DNA from: a virus
Reading direction: 5' to 3' (one strand)
Virus record (IMG/VR): IMGVR_UViG_3300020732_000008
Span: 39,933 to 103,932 of that record
DNA: 64,000 bases
Shown here in pieces: positions 34,130 to 48,207 of the stretch. A program made the position numbers and the translations under genes. Below the pieces are notes generated by a model. It did no database searches. It had not been told where the DNA came from and saw nothing but the letters and a program-made list of their open reading frames with translations. How positions within the stretch are numbered: the first letter of the stretch is position 1; every line of letters starts with the position of its first letter.

Positions 34130-34699
34130 TTAAGCGTATTGTACGTAAACCCGTGTCTCTCCACCAGAGTAGACGTCATATTCTTTTGCAGCATCAATGG
34201 CAATAGCCATTTCTTTCTTTGCTTTTTCAACAGTTCTTAGATCCTTCTTATACAAAGATCCTGCGGCATAGTCTCCACCGCTACCTGATGAGGTTACACC
34301 ACGAGCTTCACGATCAAAAGAGTAGTCTTCATCAATCCAAAATACAATTCCCTGCACTGCAACGATGAATGCACCGTCATGTTGTGCGAAGTCTCCGTCA
34401 TCCTTCATATCATAACCGCCATCAACAAAGAGCTGACGCATTGCGGGAATGAAGGTGCGAGCCATCCAAGTATCTAATTCTTCTACAGTCATACGTGACT
34501 TACGAGGTTTTGGGGCTTTCCATGCTTTTTGCATGAGATCCATACCACGACCCATACCACAACCTGCAATAAGGATTCCGTTGTTATCGATTACTTTATC
34601 ATTTGCCATTTGAAGGCGTTTGTAATCACCGACTGTGGATTGGGTATCAGCACCCATTACAACCCAGCCATCACCTTGTACTGCAGCAATTGTTGTCAA
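34130..34699 (-). CDS. Proteasome beta-subunit/HslV-like Ntn peptidase (TTG start at 34699)
   Basis: Mature N-terminus TTIAAV...MGADTQ, DK, GSGGDYAAG, DVYSGG; AAGGA SD. Confidence 0.85.
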   Translation of the reverse strand: MTTIAAVQGDGWVVMGADTQSTVGDYKRLQMANDKVIDNNGILIAGCGMGRGMDLMQKAWKAPKPRKSRMTVEELDTWMARTFIPAMRQLFVDGGYDMKDDGDFAQHDGAFIVAVQGIVFWIDEDYSFDREARGVTSSGSGGDYAAGSLYKKDLRTVEKAKKEMAIAIDAAKEYDVYSGGETRVYVQYA

Positions 34700-34821
34700 T
34701 TCAGTTCCTTTAGGTTGTAGTGTGCCCGTCACGCAATAATTACTACCAAGAGACAAATAATGGGACTTGTAAATACACCACGGGCTGTCTGCACCCCGCA
34801 GACCATATCTAAGTGTAGCAG

Positions 34822-34892
34822 CTCCCGAACATGGATTCGAACCACAACTGAGTGCTCCAGAGGCACCTGTACTACCGTTATACGATTCGGGA
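34822..34892 (-). tRNA. tRNA-Gln(CTG)
   Basis: Acceptor TCCCGAA/TTCGGGA; anticodon arm GGTGC-CTCTGGA-GCACT; T-loop TTCGAAT; no encoded CCA. Confidence 0.9.
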
Positions 34893-34914
34893 AGGACCTG
34901 GGGTGATACTCTCG

Positions 34915-34986
34915 CTGGTCATCCTGGAATTGAACCAGGTACCTCCCGATTATAGGTAGGGCGCTCTGCCATTGAGCTAACGACCA
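34915..34986 (-). tRNA. tRNA with TAT anticodon (Ile-UAU-like, atypical)
   Basis: Acceptor TGGTCGT/ATGACCA; D arm GCTC/GAGC; loop CCTATAA; T arm CCTGG-TTCAATT-CCAGG. Confidence 0.75.
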
Positions 34987-35135
34987 AAAAGTGAAACCTC
35001 AAGCCCAATGCTCATAGGCGCTTTAATCCGTCATCTAATGACAGAACCTTTTGGGCGGTACTTGAGGTTTCTGGATAAAATGATTGGGATGGCAACTCGG
35101 AGGTTACCGAATCCCAATCTGATAACTATAACATA

Positions 35136-35618
35136 TTACTTAATAGGGATCGTGCGGGCCTTCAAGTGTTCGGGGACCTCACGTTCAAGAGAAATCTTAA
35201 GAATTCCCTCTTTCAACGAGGCACCTAGAATTTTGACATCATCAGCGACACCAAATTTCTTTTCGAACTCTCTTGCGGCGACACCCTTATGTAGATACGT
35301 TTTATCCAAACTTTCTCGAACGCCGGAGACTGTAATTACAGAATCCTTAAATTCGATCTTAATGTCCTCTTTACTGAAGCCAGCGACCGCAAGTTCGATT
35401 TCATACTTGTCTTTCCCTAGGTCAATGATGTTATAGGGCGGGTAGCTGGAATCCCGGTTAGATTGGGCAATGGACTGCCATTGAACCAGATGTGGTTGAA
35501 TTCCCACTGTCCAGGGCGTAAGGGCCCTCTGAAGGGCTGCGAAGGGGTCTACATAGGTTGCTGTAGGGACCTGCTTGTGATTAATCTCTTCTTTGCCGTA
35601 GATAGCGTGTTGATGCAT
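35136..35618 (-). CDS. Small heat shock protein (Hsp20)
   Basis: YPPYNI, IELAVAGFSKEDI, YLHKGVAAREF, ASLKEGILKISL. Confidence 0.95.
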   Translation of the reverse strand: MHQHAIYGKEEINHKQVPTATYVDPFAALQRALTPWTVGIQPHLVQWQSIAQSNRDSSYPPYNIIDLGKDKYEIELAVAGFSKEDIKIEFKDSVITVSGVRESLDKTYLHKGVAAREFEKKFGVADDVKILGASLKEGILKISLEREVPEHLKARTIPIK

Positions 35619-35892
35619 GATTTATATCTCCTTAGACGATATATGTATGTTTACGGTCCCCAAGACGGGCAACCGCTAGCCAATATTAACATAAGCCACT
35701 GCCTATTTATTCCAAGAGTGACGAGGTGACGACCCCTTGTGTGATTTATAACACTTTCGTTACCTTGGGACATCGGTTACCCGTCATAAAAATAATACAT
35801 TCTTCGTATGAACCCCATTTGACCTCTCAGCACCCGGCGATTCTCAGGATTCACTACCCTCCTCCCCCTCTATTCTTCTTATGACCGATCTA

Positions 35893-35912
35893 TACCCCCC
35901 GAATTTTCACCC
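35893..35912 (+). promoter_or_regulatory. 20-bp repeated motif, copy 1 (TACCCCCCGAATTTTCACCC)
   Basis: Aligns without gaps to copies at 37096 and 37696. Confidence 0.55.
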
Positions 35913-36203
35913 ATTAGAACATCTGTTCGATCGCCCCTTGGCCACTGCCCCCCATCTTGAGGTCATGCTCACCTGTCTCACCTGGGCGGAGTGTCTGAGT
36001 GGCTCATTTAAGGGTGGGGGTATCTGGTCGGTAAGCGAGACCACCCCCCCACTAGGTAGAAGTCTGCCCTAGTGGGTTTCTCTTTGCGCTCATAATGGCG
36101 TACGGTTGAGGGCTATCACGCAATTAGTGGTAGCCCTCTTCAGTATGCCCTTATGGGGCAGAACTGTGGATAGTCCACAGTAATCTCAAGCAAAGGAATA
36201 AAA

Positions 36204-36665
36204 ATGACAACAGCAACCGCAATCCTCGTTTCCCAAAGCAACCGTCAAGGTCGCAAGGGTTCAGAGCAGGCACTAGGTGAAATTGCCGAGGCTTATCGCT
36301 CTGAGCAGGTGTCTGTCCCTAGTCCGTATGACATTACAGGACTCCGTACAGTTACCAAGAAGGATAAGACGGTGATTTATTCACCTGCTCTCAAAATGGC
36401 ACACGCTGCTTATCTCCACGTTAATCTCGGATACCCTGTGGGTAAGGCTCTAAGCCTTGCCAATCAGTATTCAGACGTGGAAGGCACCGACATTTTGGTC
36501 ACCTTCTATGGTAAGGGTACTGACGCCAATGTGCGTGAGGCTATCAACTCTCACCACGCCGTCACTATCCAGAACCGCAAGGATACTGAGGTAGACCGTG
36601 CTTACGCTGCTCTCGAAGCGGCTAAGGCTCGTTTGGAAAAGTTGGGTGTGCTAGTGAGCGCATAA
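36204..36665 (+). CDS. Hypothetical protein, first gene of the plus-strand arm
   Basis: AAAGGA SD; 153 aa. Confidence 0.8.
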   Translation: MTTATAILVSQSNRQGRKGSEQALGEIAEAYRSEQVSVPSPYDITGLRTVTKKDKTVIYSPALKMAHAAYLHVNLGYPVGKALSLANQYSDVEGTDILVTFYGKGTDANVREAINSHHAVTIQNRKDTEVDRAYAALEAAKARLEKLGVLVSA

Positions 36666-36920
36666 AGGAGAATAGGGGGTAGAGAAGCCCCCTACACCTT
36701 CGCAAGCCCATCAGTAGAGATACTGGTGGGTTTGAGTGGGTGTTATGCACCCTGTCATTTGAGCGCAAAGAGGATAAATTGTTGTTCTGCCTTCCCTATG
36801 TGGTGGCTCAGAGCGGTGGTCAATAGACCTACCCTCTGGGCCACTACTTTTATGCCCTCACACCTGTGTGGCTGTATAACCAGGTCTAGAGGGGGTGGGG
36901 CTCACTCTTATCAGGTATTT

Positions 36921-37071
36921 AGTGAAAGATAGATAGGTACTGAACACCTCGTTATCGGACTGGCTTAATGCATCTCGAGGCGATGTTCTATTCCTGTAGG
37001 TATAACCTATAGATAGGGCTGTAAACGCACTTTCCGTATAACCGCTATTAGGTATCTATCTATCTCTCACT
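36921..37071 (+). ncRNA. Candidate structured ncRNA domain closed by a 20-bp stem
   Basis: AGTGAAAGATAGATAGGTAC / GTATCTATCTATCTCTCACT (19 of 20 paired) with internal hairpins. Confidence 0.6.
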
Positions 37072-37095
37072 CTCTATCTTATTGAGAGTTATCGG

Positions 37096-37115
37096 TACCC
37101 CCGATATTTTTACCC
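37096..37115 (+). promoter_or_regulatory. 20-bp repeated motif, copy 2 (TACCCCCGATATTTTTACCC)
   Basis: Directly upstream of the RBS for the 37130 gene. Confidence 0.55.
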
Positions 37116-37129
37116 CAAAGGAGGCAGTT

Positions 37130-37333
37130 ATGAACTGCATCTATTGTGGCGCTGATGTGCCACAAGATCGTTGGAACCTAGACAAGCATTACTGTATGTC
37201 TAGGGAGTGTGTAGACAAGGCTCTAGCAGAGTCTAGGTCTAACTTCCGCTTTGTGCTTATGCCTAAGCAGGGTTTTGCCTATGTCTACAAAGATTCCCCC
37301 GATTTACTCAATGGTAGGAGTTCAGGCAGATAG
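37130..37333 (+). CDS. Small Cys-motif protein
   Basis: AAGGAGG SD, then MNCIYC...CMSREC. Confidence 0.75.
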   Translation: MNCIYCGADVPQDRWNLDKHYCMSRECVDKALAESRSNFRFVLMPKQGFAYVYKDSPDLLNGRSSGR

Positions 37334-37359
37334 CCTGACAATTCTCGAAAGGAGTCATC

Positions 37360-37596
37360 ATGTCTATAACAATTACCCTCTCAGCTGAGGATTACTTCCA
37401 CATCGTCAATGTATTACTTGACGAGTGCGGTAGCCAAGAAAGTGAGGCGGTTATCTCCCGTATGTACTCATCTAGGAATGGAAAGTTTTTGCCTTGTGTT
37501 ATATGTAGCAATCCTGAGCAATATCGTGCCTATTATGGTGCCAAGGGTTACTGTATCGACTGTATCCCTGACAGCGAGAGGAAGGTAAACGCATGA
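37360..37596 (+). CDS. Small Zn-finger protein
   Basis: AAGGAG SD; CVIC...CIDC. Confidence 0.75.
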   Translation: MSITITLSAEDYFHIVNVLLDECGSQESEAVISRMYSSRNGKFLPCVICSNPEQYRAYYGAKGYCIDCIPDSERKVNA

Positions 37597-37691
37597 GCAT
37601 TTTAGACCCCATGCAATCGGGCCTACCCATCACCTTGATGTGGCTAGGCCTTTCCCTATGTATTGGCTATTTGCTCATAGGTAAGAAGTAA
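37593..37691 (+). CDS. Small membrane peptide (32 aa)
   Basis: Read manually; ATGA coupling; single hydrophobic segment followed by KK. Confidence 0.55.
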   Translation: MSILDPMQSGLPITLMWLGLSLCIGYLLIGKK

Positions 37692-37695
37692 TCAG

Positions 37696-37715
37696 TACCC
37701 CGCAAAATTTGACCC
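37696..37715 (+). promoter_or_regulatory. 20-bp repeated motif, copy 3 (TACCCCGCAAAATTTGACCC)
   Basis: Intergenic, just before a terminator. Confidence 0.55.
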
Positions 37716-37723
37716 GTTAAATT

Positions 37724-37750
37724 GCGCATCTCGAGAGAGGTGCGCTTTTT
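37724..37750 (+). terminator. Intrinsic terminator
   Basis: GCGCATCTC-GAGA-GAGGTGCGC-TTTTT. Confidence 0.75.
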
Positions 37751-37786
37751 ACTGTGCCAAAAGGTGCAGGAATTAGGGAGGACACA

Positions 37787-37948
37787 ATGAGAAATGGAAC
37801 ACTTTCACCAACAGAAAGTACAAGTTGGGAACCTGTCTATGGAAATTACAAGACAAGTGACCAGTACTGTCCACACTGCACCTCAGGGTGTAACTCGTGT
37901 GGTTACGGTAAAGACAAAACTTGTAATTGCTGCGAGGTCTCAAAATGA
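37787..37948 (+). CDS. Small Cys-rich protein
   Basis: GGAGG SD; CPHC..GCNSC...CNCC. Confidence 0.65.
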   Translation: MRNGTLSPTESTSWEPVYGNYKTSDQYCPHCTSGCNSCGYGKDKTCNCCEVSK

Positions 37949-38157
37949 TGTGGTACCTCAAGGCTTTGATCCATCGCTATTACATGGGCTATTGGCCAAA
38001 GAAGCCAGTTTCCATTAAAAAGGCGATTAGACGAGCTGAAAAGGGATTAGTGATGTTAGTTGATGAAATGAATATGACTTCATCAATGATGAAGAACTAC
38101 ATTGAGCCGGATATGTTGGCTCAAATTGATAGAACGATTGAAAAGATTCTTGGATGA
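37945..38157 (+). CDS. Hypothetical protein
   Basis: ATGA coupling. Confidence 0.6.
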   Translation: MMWYLKALIHRYYMGYWPKKPVSIKKAIRRAEKGLVMLVDEMNMTSSMMKNYIEPDMLAQIDRTIEKILG

Positions 38158-38224
38158 GTAAGGCAGCCAATAAATCCCTCGGATTTGTTGGTTGCATTAT
38201 CTATCCAAAAGATAGATAAAAAGG

Positions 38225-38358
38225 GGGAACAACACAGGACTGTGGACGCTAGGCGTATTTATACGCATAGGCTAGGCCATTGGAACTCGAAGGAATGTGC
38301 ATTAAAAGCTAGAGGAGCCGATGGTGACCCGAGCCGCCCCCTTCCCTGTGTTATTCTT
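38225..38358 (+). ncRNA. Candidate ncRNA domain
   Basis: GGGAA.AACACAGG / CCTGTGTT.TTCTT closing stem. Confidence 0.5.
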
Positions 38359-38363
38359 AACAG

Positions 38364-38496
38364 GAGAACAGCGAGAGACTATACACAGCAAGGCCCGGCA
38401 TCCTCCCCGTAAGTATTAACCGACCACTTAGTGGAACGAAAGAACACGGTCGCATGCCCCCCCTTAGCCAGTGTATCTTCCACCCTCGCTGTTCTC
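38364..38496 (+). ncRNA. Candidate rod-like ncRNA with C-rich unpaired tracts
   Basis: Perfect 12-bp GAGAACAGCGAG/CTCGCTGTTCTC, extended by ATACAC/GTGTAT, AAGG/CCTT and GGCAT/ATGCC. Confidence 0.65.
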
Positions 38497-38501
38497 TTTT
38501 T

Positions 38502-38808
38502 ATTTGACATGATGGAAGGCAGATAATTACGACGACTGCCTGTAAAGTGCACAGCCTTTCTATGTTAGTACCCAGTGATATGGCGAATCATAAGATTGCT
38601 GCTAAATACACGCTTTGTTCTTGTAAACGTCCTGTGAATAAAAGTTATGGAGGATCCATAATATAAGGCAACGCATGCCGTATATTCCCGGAGCGACGCA
38701 GTGAGCATGTACTGTTTACAAATATCACGACAAAGCTAAAGGTATGGATAACGTGGTCCTCACGTGCAATATGTCCTCCGTAATTATCTGTCTCCCACTA
38801 TGTCAAAT
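38502..38808 (+). ncRNA. Candidate ~300-nt multibranched ncRNA
   Basis: 30-bp closing stem (28 paired) plus nested GCTTTGT/ACAAAGC, TTGTAAAC/GTTTACAA and several hairpins. Confidence 0.7.
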
Positions 38809-38830
38809 GACATAGTTAAAGGAGGAGAAG

Positions 38831-46908: not shown

Positions 46909-47437
46909 CGTAGCTGTAGAAGCCGAGAGTAAGGAAGAGGCCTTTAAAAAGGTACAGCGCTTCCTATTAGAAGAAAACAATGCACCTTGGTCTGATTGGC
47001 ATGTTGTAGGTGGTGGACGTTGGAGCAACTCCCATTATGAGGATAGCTCTGAAAACGTGCTAGGCTACAAGGACGCTGACTTTAAGAAGTCATTCCAAGA
47101 TAGTTTGACAAATCGTTTAAACGAGTTAGAAAGGATCATGAAGGATATACAACCTCAAAAGATTCTTATTAACGGTAAAAGCTATTTGTCAAAGATGAAG
47201 AAGATAGCTCAATCTCAAGCTCCTTGGGTACCAATGGATCCAAGCGCTAGCCCATTCGTATTTGATAGGCTAATGTGGAGACTAGAGCAAATGAGCAAGA
47301 TCCTCAACAATGAGTGGACATCTGACAGCTATTTCTATGATATAGAAACCTGGACAGCTGACGCATCATCATTCTTAGATCGAGTATCTAAGAACCCAGA
47401 TAAACAATGGTTAGTTCCTGTGGACTTTCACTGCTAA
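46892..47437 (+). CDS. Hypothetical phage protein
   Basis: DWHVVGGGRWS and WLVPVDFHC motifs of a recurrent phage family. Confidence 0.75.
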   Translation: MHCLHNVAVEAESKEEAFKKVQRFLLEENNAPWSDWHVVGGGRWSNSHYEDSSENVLGYKDADFKKSFQDSLTNRLNELERIMKDIQPQKILINGKSYLSKMKKIAQSQAPWVPMDPSASPFVFDRLMWRLEQMSKILNNEWTSDSYFYDIETWTADASSFLDRVSKNPDKQWLVPVDFHC

Positions 47438-47461
47438 CCAAAACCCCAATCGGAGGCAACA

Positions 47462-47728
47462 ATGGCAACAAAGCGTCAAGCGATTATCTGGAAGGTAGTT
47501 CTAACCAAGAACACCAATCCAGGTGGTGCATGGTTGGCACAAGCCACATCAAGCACTATCGAAGATGGACAAACAGGCGAATACTTTGAGGCATTCTCTA
47601 ATGCATCAGCTGCAAAGCGGTGGGTTAAAGCTCAAACAGGTCGCAAAACAATCTCGTGGGTCGAGTCAGGTGAAGATGCTAAAGGTAAGCCAACAGCATT
47701 TAACGCTGGCTATGAAGTAAAGGTTTAA
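47462..47728 (+). CDS. Hypothetical protein
   Basis: GGAGG SD. Confidence 0.7.
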   Translation: MATKRQAIIWKVVLTKNTNPGGAWLAQATSSTIEDGQTGEYFEAFSNASAAKRWVKAQTGRKTISWVESGEDAKGKPTAFNAGYEVKV

Positions 47729-48207
47729 TGCAGACCTTTATGCCCTATCCAGATTATGCACTTACTGCTGCAGCGCTTGATACTAAGCGACTTGGTAAAC
47801 AACGGGTAGAAGCATTCCAAATACTCCGGGTAAGGATGAACCTTACCCAGGGTTGGAGGAATCACCCTGCGGTGCTAATGTGGAAGGGATACGAAGGTTC
47901 TTTATGTAACTATGGAATAACTATGTGTGAAGAGTGGATTAGACGAGGTCATCAAGACCATCTTTTACCCCAATTCATTTATTATTCAGAATACTGGGCA
48001 CATGATAGGTTTAATCCACCATGGTGGTTAAACAACCCAACGTTTCATATGTCACATAGATCAAACCTTAAAAGAAAAGATCCTATACACTATAACTTCC
48101 AAGATGTCCCAGATGACTTGCCATACCAATGGCCAGTTATGGAAACAGAGACATTTAGGATTATAGAAAAGAAAGTAGCAAAAAGTGGAAACAAAATTAA
48201 AGTGTAA
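47728..48207 (+). CDS. MSMEG_6728-family pyrimidine-dimer glycosylase/DenV-like protein
   Basis: MQTFMPYPD, LDTKRLGKQRVEA, GWRNHPAVLMWKGY, HMSHRSNLKRKDP. Confidence 0.85.
   Translation: MQTFMPYPDYALTAAALDTKRLGKQRVEAFQILRVRMNLTQGWRNHPAVLMWKGYEGSLCNYGITMCEEWIRRGHQDHLLPQFIYYSEYWAHDRFNPPWWLNNPTFHMSHRSNLKRKDPIHYNFQDVPDDLPYQWPVMETETFRIIEKKVAKSGNKIKV

Follow-up and report, generated by a model that had tools for sequence, protein, structure and literature searches.

A long closing helix in the early arm of a ~100-kb phage, best explained as a divergent member of a new intercistronic RNA stem family

What is the 307-nt element (38502-38808) that the strongest long-range stem of an uncultured phage closes, and is it the element as a whole or only its closing helix that calls for an explanation? 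The original prediction, made from the letters of the DNA alone, had proposed a large, multibranched non-coding RNA held together by this helix. The window analysed here (the whole 64,000-nt stretch, in which all positions are given unless a related locus is named) comprises bases 39933-103932 of a 103,932-bp IMG/VR phage record (IMGVR_UViG_3300020732_000008) that was judged complete. All genes from ~35000 to 48200, including the neighbours of the element, are carried on the + strand in what we refer to as the early arm, and the presence of whiB leads us to presume that the host is probably an actinobacterium. The genes that orient the reader are as follows.

34130-34756, - strand: gene for an HslV/proteasome-like peptidase
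34821-34986, - strand: genes for tRNA-Gln(CUG) and tRNA-Ile(UAU)
38831-39403, + strand: downstream early gene, encoding a 190-aa protein
41016-41318, + strand: whiB, in the early arm
41939-43378, + strand: gene for an AAA_5/CobS-like ATPase
43389-45392, + strand: gene for a VWA protein
47728-48207, + strand: gene for a pyrimidine-dimer DNA glycosylase (PF03013)

The element occupies the 3'-most part of an ORF-poor gap of 670 nt (38158-38830), right before the Shine-Dalgarno sequence (SD) and ATG of the 190-aa gene. That it is non-coding was confirmed, as no + strand ORF of at least 40 aa runs across it and the small internal ORFs are unconvincing. Such gaps are a general trait of the region: about one third of the early arm (35000-42000) is ORF-poor, with large gaps at 36666-37129, 38158-38830, 39404-39745, 40719-41015, and 41319-41607, which is an unusual size for a phage.

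The closing helix and its surroundings consist of four parts, in which R2 denotes a stem family of related phages that is described below.

38498-38531, + strand: 5' arm, purine-rich, holding GATGGAAGGCA as R2-type core and aligning to the R2 5' arm
38532-38778, + strand: lineage-specific non-coding insert at the apex, 247 nt long
38779-38812, + strand: 3' arm, pyrimidine-rich, holding CTGTCTCCCAC as R2-type core
38818-38833, + strand: SD (AAAGGAGGAG) and ATG with which the following cistron starts, 18 nt past the 3' arm

The inverted repeat between 38502-38531 and 38779-38808 is just as had been predicted, with 26 Watson-Crick pairs, two G-U pairs, and two A-C mismatches over 30 nt, and it extends to 34 nt at 38498-38812, where 31 of the 34 positions are paired (28 Watson-Crick and three G-U). 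When the arms were closed with a tetraloop, the helix reached -39.4 kcal/mol and was the best long-range stem in the 103.9-kb genome, while the best stems of eight dinucleotide-shuffled genomes reached only -23 to -34 kcal/mol and were all weaker. The full 307 nt had folding z-scores of -4.55 on the + strand and -4.84 on the - strand. The helix by itself does not decide between the strands, having two G-U pairs and two A-C mismatches either way and energies of -39.4 vs -37.1 kcal/mol; our stem detector, which treats the strands symmetrically, favoured the + strand for most strong stems but did so only marginally for the 38498-38812 copy. The 5' arm, searched for as an exact pattern, had no match in IMG/VR. 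Two other readings of the arms were dropped along the way: a promoter formed by TTGACA and GATAAT in the 5' arm, whose spacing is 12 nt and which the promoter scan did not flag, and a resemblance of the arm ends to integron attC sites, since these ends are not common to the other members of the family.

Inside the helix, little stands out from chance. Without the arms, the insert folds like its own shuffles (z of -0.01 on the + strand and +0.42 on the - strand), so that the closing helix supplies the entire thermodynamic signal. The nested helices and hairpins that had been listed for the interior do exist as strings in the sequence, although their number and strength are at chance level. No similarity beyond noise was found between the insert and the related loci, blastn against 50,697 phage records gave no match to the element, and we detected no constraint on the insert. 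At gathering thresholds, Rfam found only the two tRNAs in the window, and its check of 38502-38808 gave no match at E up to 10. Because the interior shows no above-chance folding, a single large multibranched RNA with a specific fold is not supported; the interior also lacks any homologue or Rfam match. The suggested resemblance to 6S RNA or Ms1 likewise found no support: all are of comparable size and are closed by pairing between their two ends, but the interior of the element is unconserved and offers no evidence for a conserved central bubble. A Y-RNA-like reading was also considered and dropped; a phage-encoded Ro/TROVE protein was looked for and is absent. Hence, the elaborate interior fold is not to be taken at face value, and the closing helix alone is supported.

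Relatives of the phage place this helix in a wider context. Using the AAA protein as query, we retrieved 25 loci of related ~100-kb phages at 51-68% identity, and the 670-nt gap has no sequence in common with any of them. A long-range stem scan of all loci revealed closing helices that resemble one another, and 14 of these stems, all from relatives and with the window excluded, were aligned into a covariance model that we call R2. Its arms read 5'-GUGGAAG-(AU/GC)-ACAUAGG, paired with CCUAUGU-(AU/GC)-CUCUCAC-3', and across the 14-stem alignment the helix keeps one irregularity, a conserved G-U pair adjoining an A that is always unpaired opposite a C. Compensatory changes occur in 11 of the 19 R2 pairs, which, as with R1 below, is a count of non-independent events, since many copies are related by descent. 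In 20 related loci the model found 21 sites, and seven further IMG/VR loci added 11. The score of every site in these 27 loci is far higher on the strand of the early genes than on the opposite one (e.g., 106 vs 32 bits); all sites lie on that strand (+), within the early arm and a few kb before the AAA gene. Of 2.9 million IMG/VR contigs scanned for an exact copy of the core of the R2 3' arm, only 13 had one, and those examined all belong to this group.

What the stems enclose is far less constant than the stems themselves. The inserts are mutually unrelated and range from ~30 to 250 nt, and they and the neighbouring small genes vary among phages while the stems persist. Large inserts recur, as in the stem at L004:253-556 (38 bits), which carries 240 nt, and in those of L005, L011, and L025, which carry ~150-190 nt. 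For 16 of the 31 stems, among them that of the element, an SD-led start codon follows at a distance of 11-29 nt from the end of the 3' arm. The window itself has one canonical copy.

36909-37083, + strand: canonical R2 stem-closed element enclosing ~100 nt

This copy scores 44.1 bits on the + strand (E 4e-13, with E-values of the R1 and R2 models being rough because of a short calibration) and 20.3 bits on the - strand. Downstream of it is a small gene ending at 37333; most relatives have conserved this gene, and there too an R2 stem precedes it.

Does the element belong to this family? With filters off, a search of the 13.5-kb early arm on both strands gave two significant R2 matches only, the canonical copy at 36909-37083 and the element itself, at 38499-38803 on the + strand (15.3 bits, with a similarly rough E of 0.0018). 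There was no match to the element on the - strand at E up to 5. We count the match as weak because a search with default filters misses it, and several conserved R2 positions differ in this copy. In register with the consensus arms are GAUGGAAGGCAGAUAAU and AUUAUCUGUCUCCCAC, and the A-C mismatch is kept at the aligned position, while the adjoining G-U is replaced by G-C and an extra A-C lies one step outward. The 11-mer GATGGAAGGCA also occurs in the 5' arm of the R2 stem at L025:5124-5134. Finally, 18 nt separate the end of the 3' arm from the ATG at 38831, and AAAGGAGGAG lies between them. From the weak match, the aligned arms, the common 11-mer, and the 18-nt spacing, we therefore interpret the closing helix as a divergent R2-type stalk with an unusually large apical insert, the match being weak but significant. 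We also take the helix as a feature of + strand RNA, because copies in the family always score far higher on that strand. Together, the closing helix is real and exceptional, and membership in a new family of intercistronic RNA stems, specific to this phage lineage, explains it best.

A second element of the related phages bears on what such a stalk may carry. Using nhmmer, we found a ~290-nt element, R1, in many related loci and always on the early-gene strand. Copies, with others existing, include the following.

L010:4938-5230, early-gene strand: R1 copy
L019:5715-6011, early-gene strand: R1 copy
L028:5480-5779, early-gene strand: R1 copy
L016:7150-7445, early-gene strand: R1 copy
L012:6550-6850, early-gene strand: R1 copy
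L007:1085-1390, early-gene strand: R1 copy
L011:6230-6530, early-gene strand: R1 copy
L029:2971-3265 (also given from 2970): R1 copy recognised by both the R1 and the R2 models

An alignment of twelve distinct copies has compensatory changes in 29 of 50 internal pairs, and 92% of its cells are paired, vs about 40% when the partners are slid. Several conserved G-U pairs fix the strand, the loops are conserved and purine-rich, and the closing helix is 27-32 bp long with a purine-rich 5' arm. Despite this covariation, the R1 interior has a folding z-score of +1.0, and for this reason a z-score about 0 does not disprove a function for the insert of our element. R1 is not in Rfam, and Rfam searches of six related loci, at gathering thresholds and at E up to 10, gave nothing relevant. 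From these comparisons, R1 is a strong candidate for a new structured phage RNA. In L010, L024, L025, and L028, it lies between homologues of the gene ending at 37333 and of the 190-aa gene, i.e., in the same slot as our element, and because R2 also recognises the closing helix of the L029 copy, an R2-type stalk can carry a conserved RNA.

Our element resembles R1 in size, in its place in the early arm, and in a closing helix with a purine-rich 5' arm, but the interiors are not homologous. A MAFFT alignment had suggested membership in R1, which was rejected by an HMM and a covariance model built without the window. On the element, the latter gave 6.4 bits on the + strand and 4.9 on the - strand, aligning the closing helix alone and leaving 255 nt as an insertion; nhmmer with the R1 HMM, including an enlarged one, did not find the element, and Smith-Waterman scores against R1 members were not above those of shuffles. 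R1 is also absent from the whole genome behind the window and from the complete genomes behind L004, L005, and L026, of which L004 and L005 are among the closest relatives of the window. We regard the R2 stem family and the R1 RNA of the related phages as more striking than the element that led to them.

As for what the element might do, our preferred though tentative reading, in which we place a little less than even confidence, is that of an RNA stalk between cistrons that acts in cis and carries a lineage-specific insert; it probably serves processing or stability, as a site of the RNase III type. An RNA-level role in cis is suggested by the strand asymmetry, the covariation of the arms, the tolerance of any insert, and the fixed position before ribosome-binding sites. 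Under this proposal, the element would be a module of a presumed early polycistronic + strand transcript, and the stalk would most likely be a double-stranded recognition site, placed a short way before the sites at which ribosomes bind to early genes. Processing by an endonuclease that is probably of the RNase III type would separate the cistrons and leave defined, hairpin-protected ends adjoining the SD; the stalk may also insulate the SD from upstream sequence. A cut through both strands of the stalk would release the insert as a ~250-300-nt RNA, and the 247 nt at the apex would be a lineage-specific insertion.

A stalk for processing, stability, or insulation is favoured because the helix is longer than 22 bp, because mismatches shape cleavage, and because phage T7 provides a precedent. 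The idealised RNase III substrate is 22 bp long, roughly two helical turns, and mismatches modulate its cleavage (PMC3867540); the helix of the element, at 30 bp or more, exceeds this length. In T7, five intercistronic RNase III signals are cut in the early polycistronic mRNA, and these share with the R2-type stems that they are double-stranded, lie between cistrons of an early operon, occur as several related copies per transcript, and contain internal mismatches (PMC3867540). The T7 sites are, however, compact hairpins without sequence relation to the element, which encloses 247 nt and whose cleavage is putative. Because the phage encodes no RNase III (a gene for one was looked for and is absent), a double-strand-specific nuclease of the host must be assumed. 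Several considerations count against the stalk reading: the R2 match of the element is weak, its two strands fold almost equally well, a functionless 247-nt insert would be odd in a phage genome, and RNase III has little sequence preference, such that the conservation of the arm sequences fits a sequence-specific binding protein better than processing by this enzyme.

That last point opens the alternative in which the stem is the RNA site of a sequence-specific phage or host protein that controls the translation or stability of the downstream message, with no need for processing. The R2 arms are conserved beyond what pairing needs, including the invariant unpaired A and C and the G-U, and the distance from stem to SD is short and fixed. 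There is also an analogue in the ESAS repeats of Cluster K mycobacteriophages, for which a specific RNA-binding protein has been suggested and which are still unexplained (PMC3203893). Like R2, these are imperfect inverted repeats with a variable spacer that lie just upstream of the translation starts of a subset of non-structural genes, in one orientation and conserved by gene family; they differ in having 17-bp arms and spacers of mostly 4-13 bp, compared with R2-type arms of 20-34 nt and spacers of 30-250 nt (PMC3203893). R2 also has other sequences than ESAS, and its covariation and strand asymmetry point to RNA. We nevertheless judge a protein site unlikely as the main explanation, given that no RNA-binding protein presents itself as a candidate, the small early proteins having no Pfam or PHROG match, and that the element departs from the consensus at several conserved positions. 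The idea that all 307 nt form an autonomous, trans-acting RNA, excised via the closing helix and binding, e.g., RNA polymerase, fits the size and the helix, and it gains from the structured 290-nt R1 that often occupies the same slot in relatives and from R1 itself demonstrating that real RNAs can lack a folding signal. It is nonetheless doubtful, with an interior at z about 0, no homologue in any search and none in Rfam, an R1 model that aligns only the closing helix (6.4 bits), and Smith-Waterman scores at shuffle level. On a related note, R2-type stalks might be generic excision scaffolds into which RNA cargoes are swapped, which we hold to be possible but not likely. If so, the cargoes would be R1 in one clade, the 247 nt here, the 240 nt in L004, and the ~150-190 nt in L005, L011, and L025, and the insert of our element would be a fast-evolving functional early RNA, e.g., a decoy or host-takeover RNA, set free when the stalk is cut.

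The remaining explanations dispense with a processed or bound RNA. The original prediction had held that homologues keeping only the terminal inverted repeats would indicate a DNA element. Such an element could be a MITE-like insertion bounded by terminal inverted repeats, or else a repeated cassette for recombination and gene shuffling like the T4 PeSL stem-loops. The first half of the original expectation came true, in that the stem is all that is common to the relatives while inserts and adjacent small genes differ, and the PeSL stem-loops are a precedent, being repeated, conserved, and situated between small early ORFans in plastic regions with variable gene content (PMC2839356). The second half did not follow: the asymmetry and strand specificity of the stem family, along with its link to ribosome-binding sites, lead us to favour an RNA stalk over a DNA element. 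A conserved G-U and A-C on one strand is not needed by a symmetric protein-DNA site or a transposon end, the copies in the family occupy orthologous positions in one orientation with arms that covary, and the element itself is present as a single copy in the genome and has no target-site duplication or direct repeat at its flanks. PeSLs moreover combine a sigma-70 promoter with a terminator stem (PMC2839356), whereas scanning the element revealed neither a promoter nor a terminator signature. A DNA-level element is thus improbable in our view. PeSL-like recombination between repeated stems could, by analogy, explain the swapping of inserts and neighbouring ORFans. An intrinsic terminator or attenuator between early genes seems very improbable; the stem is intergenic in an operon and the short-loop members of the family look like hairpins, but the 3' arm is followed by GACATAGTTAAAGG rather than by a U-tract, the terminator scan left it unflagged, and a 247-nt loop would presumably be too slow for a hairpin to form co-transcriptionally.

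Intercistronic stems are a known device of phage early operons, with the T7 RNase III sites, the T4 PeSLs, and the Cluster K ESAS as examples; for uncultured actinobacterial phages of ~100 kb, descriptions of such stems are, to our knowledge, very scarce. Here, one strand-specific stem with a fixed G-U/A-C irregularity recurs before the starts of early genes and tolerates inserts of up to 250 nt. If the stalk is indeed a processing site, it would offer a testable handle on how early expression is organised in these phages, and it could explain why about one third of the early arm is non-coding.

The remainder of the 670-nt gap holds further stem-closed features upstream of the element.

38163-38195, + strand: 15-bp hairpin with no U-tract, immediately behind the stop codon at 38157 where the upstream ORF ends
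38221-38345, + strand: first large domain of the gap, with a 36-nt core at 38283-38318
38358-38502, + strand: rod-like stem-closed domain abutting the 5' arm of the element

The 36-nt core is identical to L040:1563-1597 (- strand, co-oriented with the early genes of L040), with diverged flanks, and in both phages this block lies within a tandem array of stem-closed domains; no other IMG/VR contig has its 22-nt core. The folding z-score is -6.8 for the whole gap and -8.5 for the corresponding gap of L040. A coding reading of the ORF at 38185-38412, suggested by a tblastn match in L040, was rejected, as the similarity is the 36-nt identical block and the matching region of L040 has no corresponding ORF of at least 45 aa. 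Elsewhere in the early arm, 37724-37745 has the look of a true intrinsic terminator, with a GC-rich hairpin of 9 bp and TTTTT after it.

Downstream, the 190-aa protein is conserved in most relatives over its Cys-rich residues ~102 to 190, and its N-terminal half was matched in L028 only (45% identity over the full length). Searches of IMG/VR and JGI metagenomes with the protein found no relatives, and a large protein collection held only the identical protein, on seven contigs, and a single distant relative. Within the ORF, an in-frame ATG at 39155 is preceded by AAAGGAGAA, and the ORF may encode either a two-domain protein or nested starts. The minimum-energy structure predicted for 38480-38900 has both the SD and the gene start paired with 38862-38883, within the gene's own coding region, and this modelled pairing of 38818-38885 could occlude the ribosome-binding site of the 190-aa gene.
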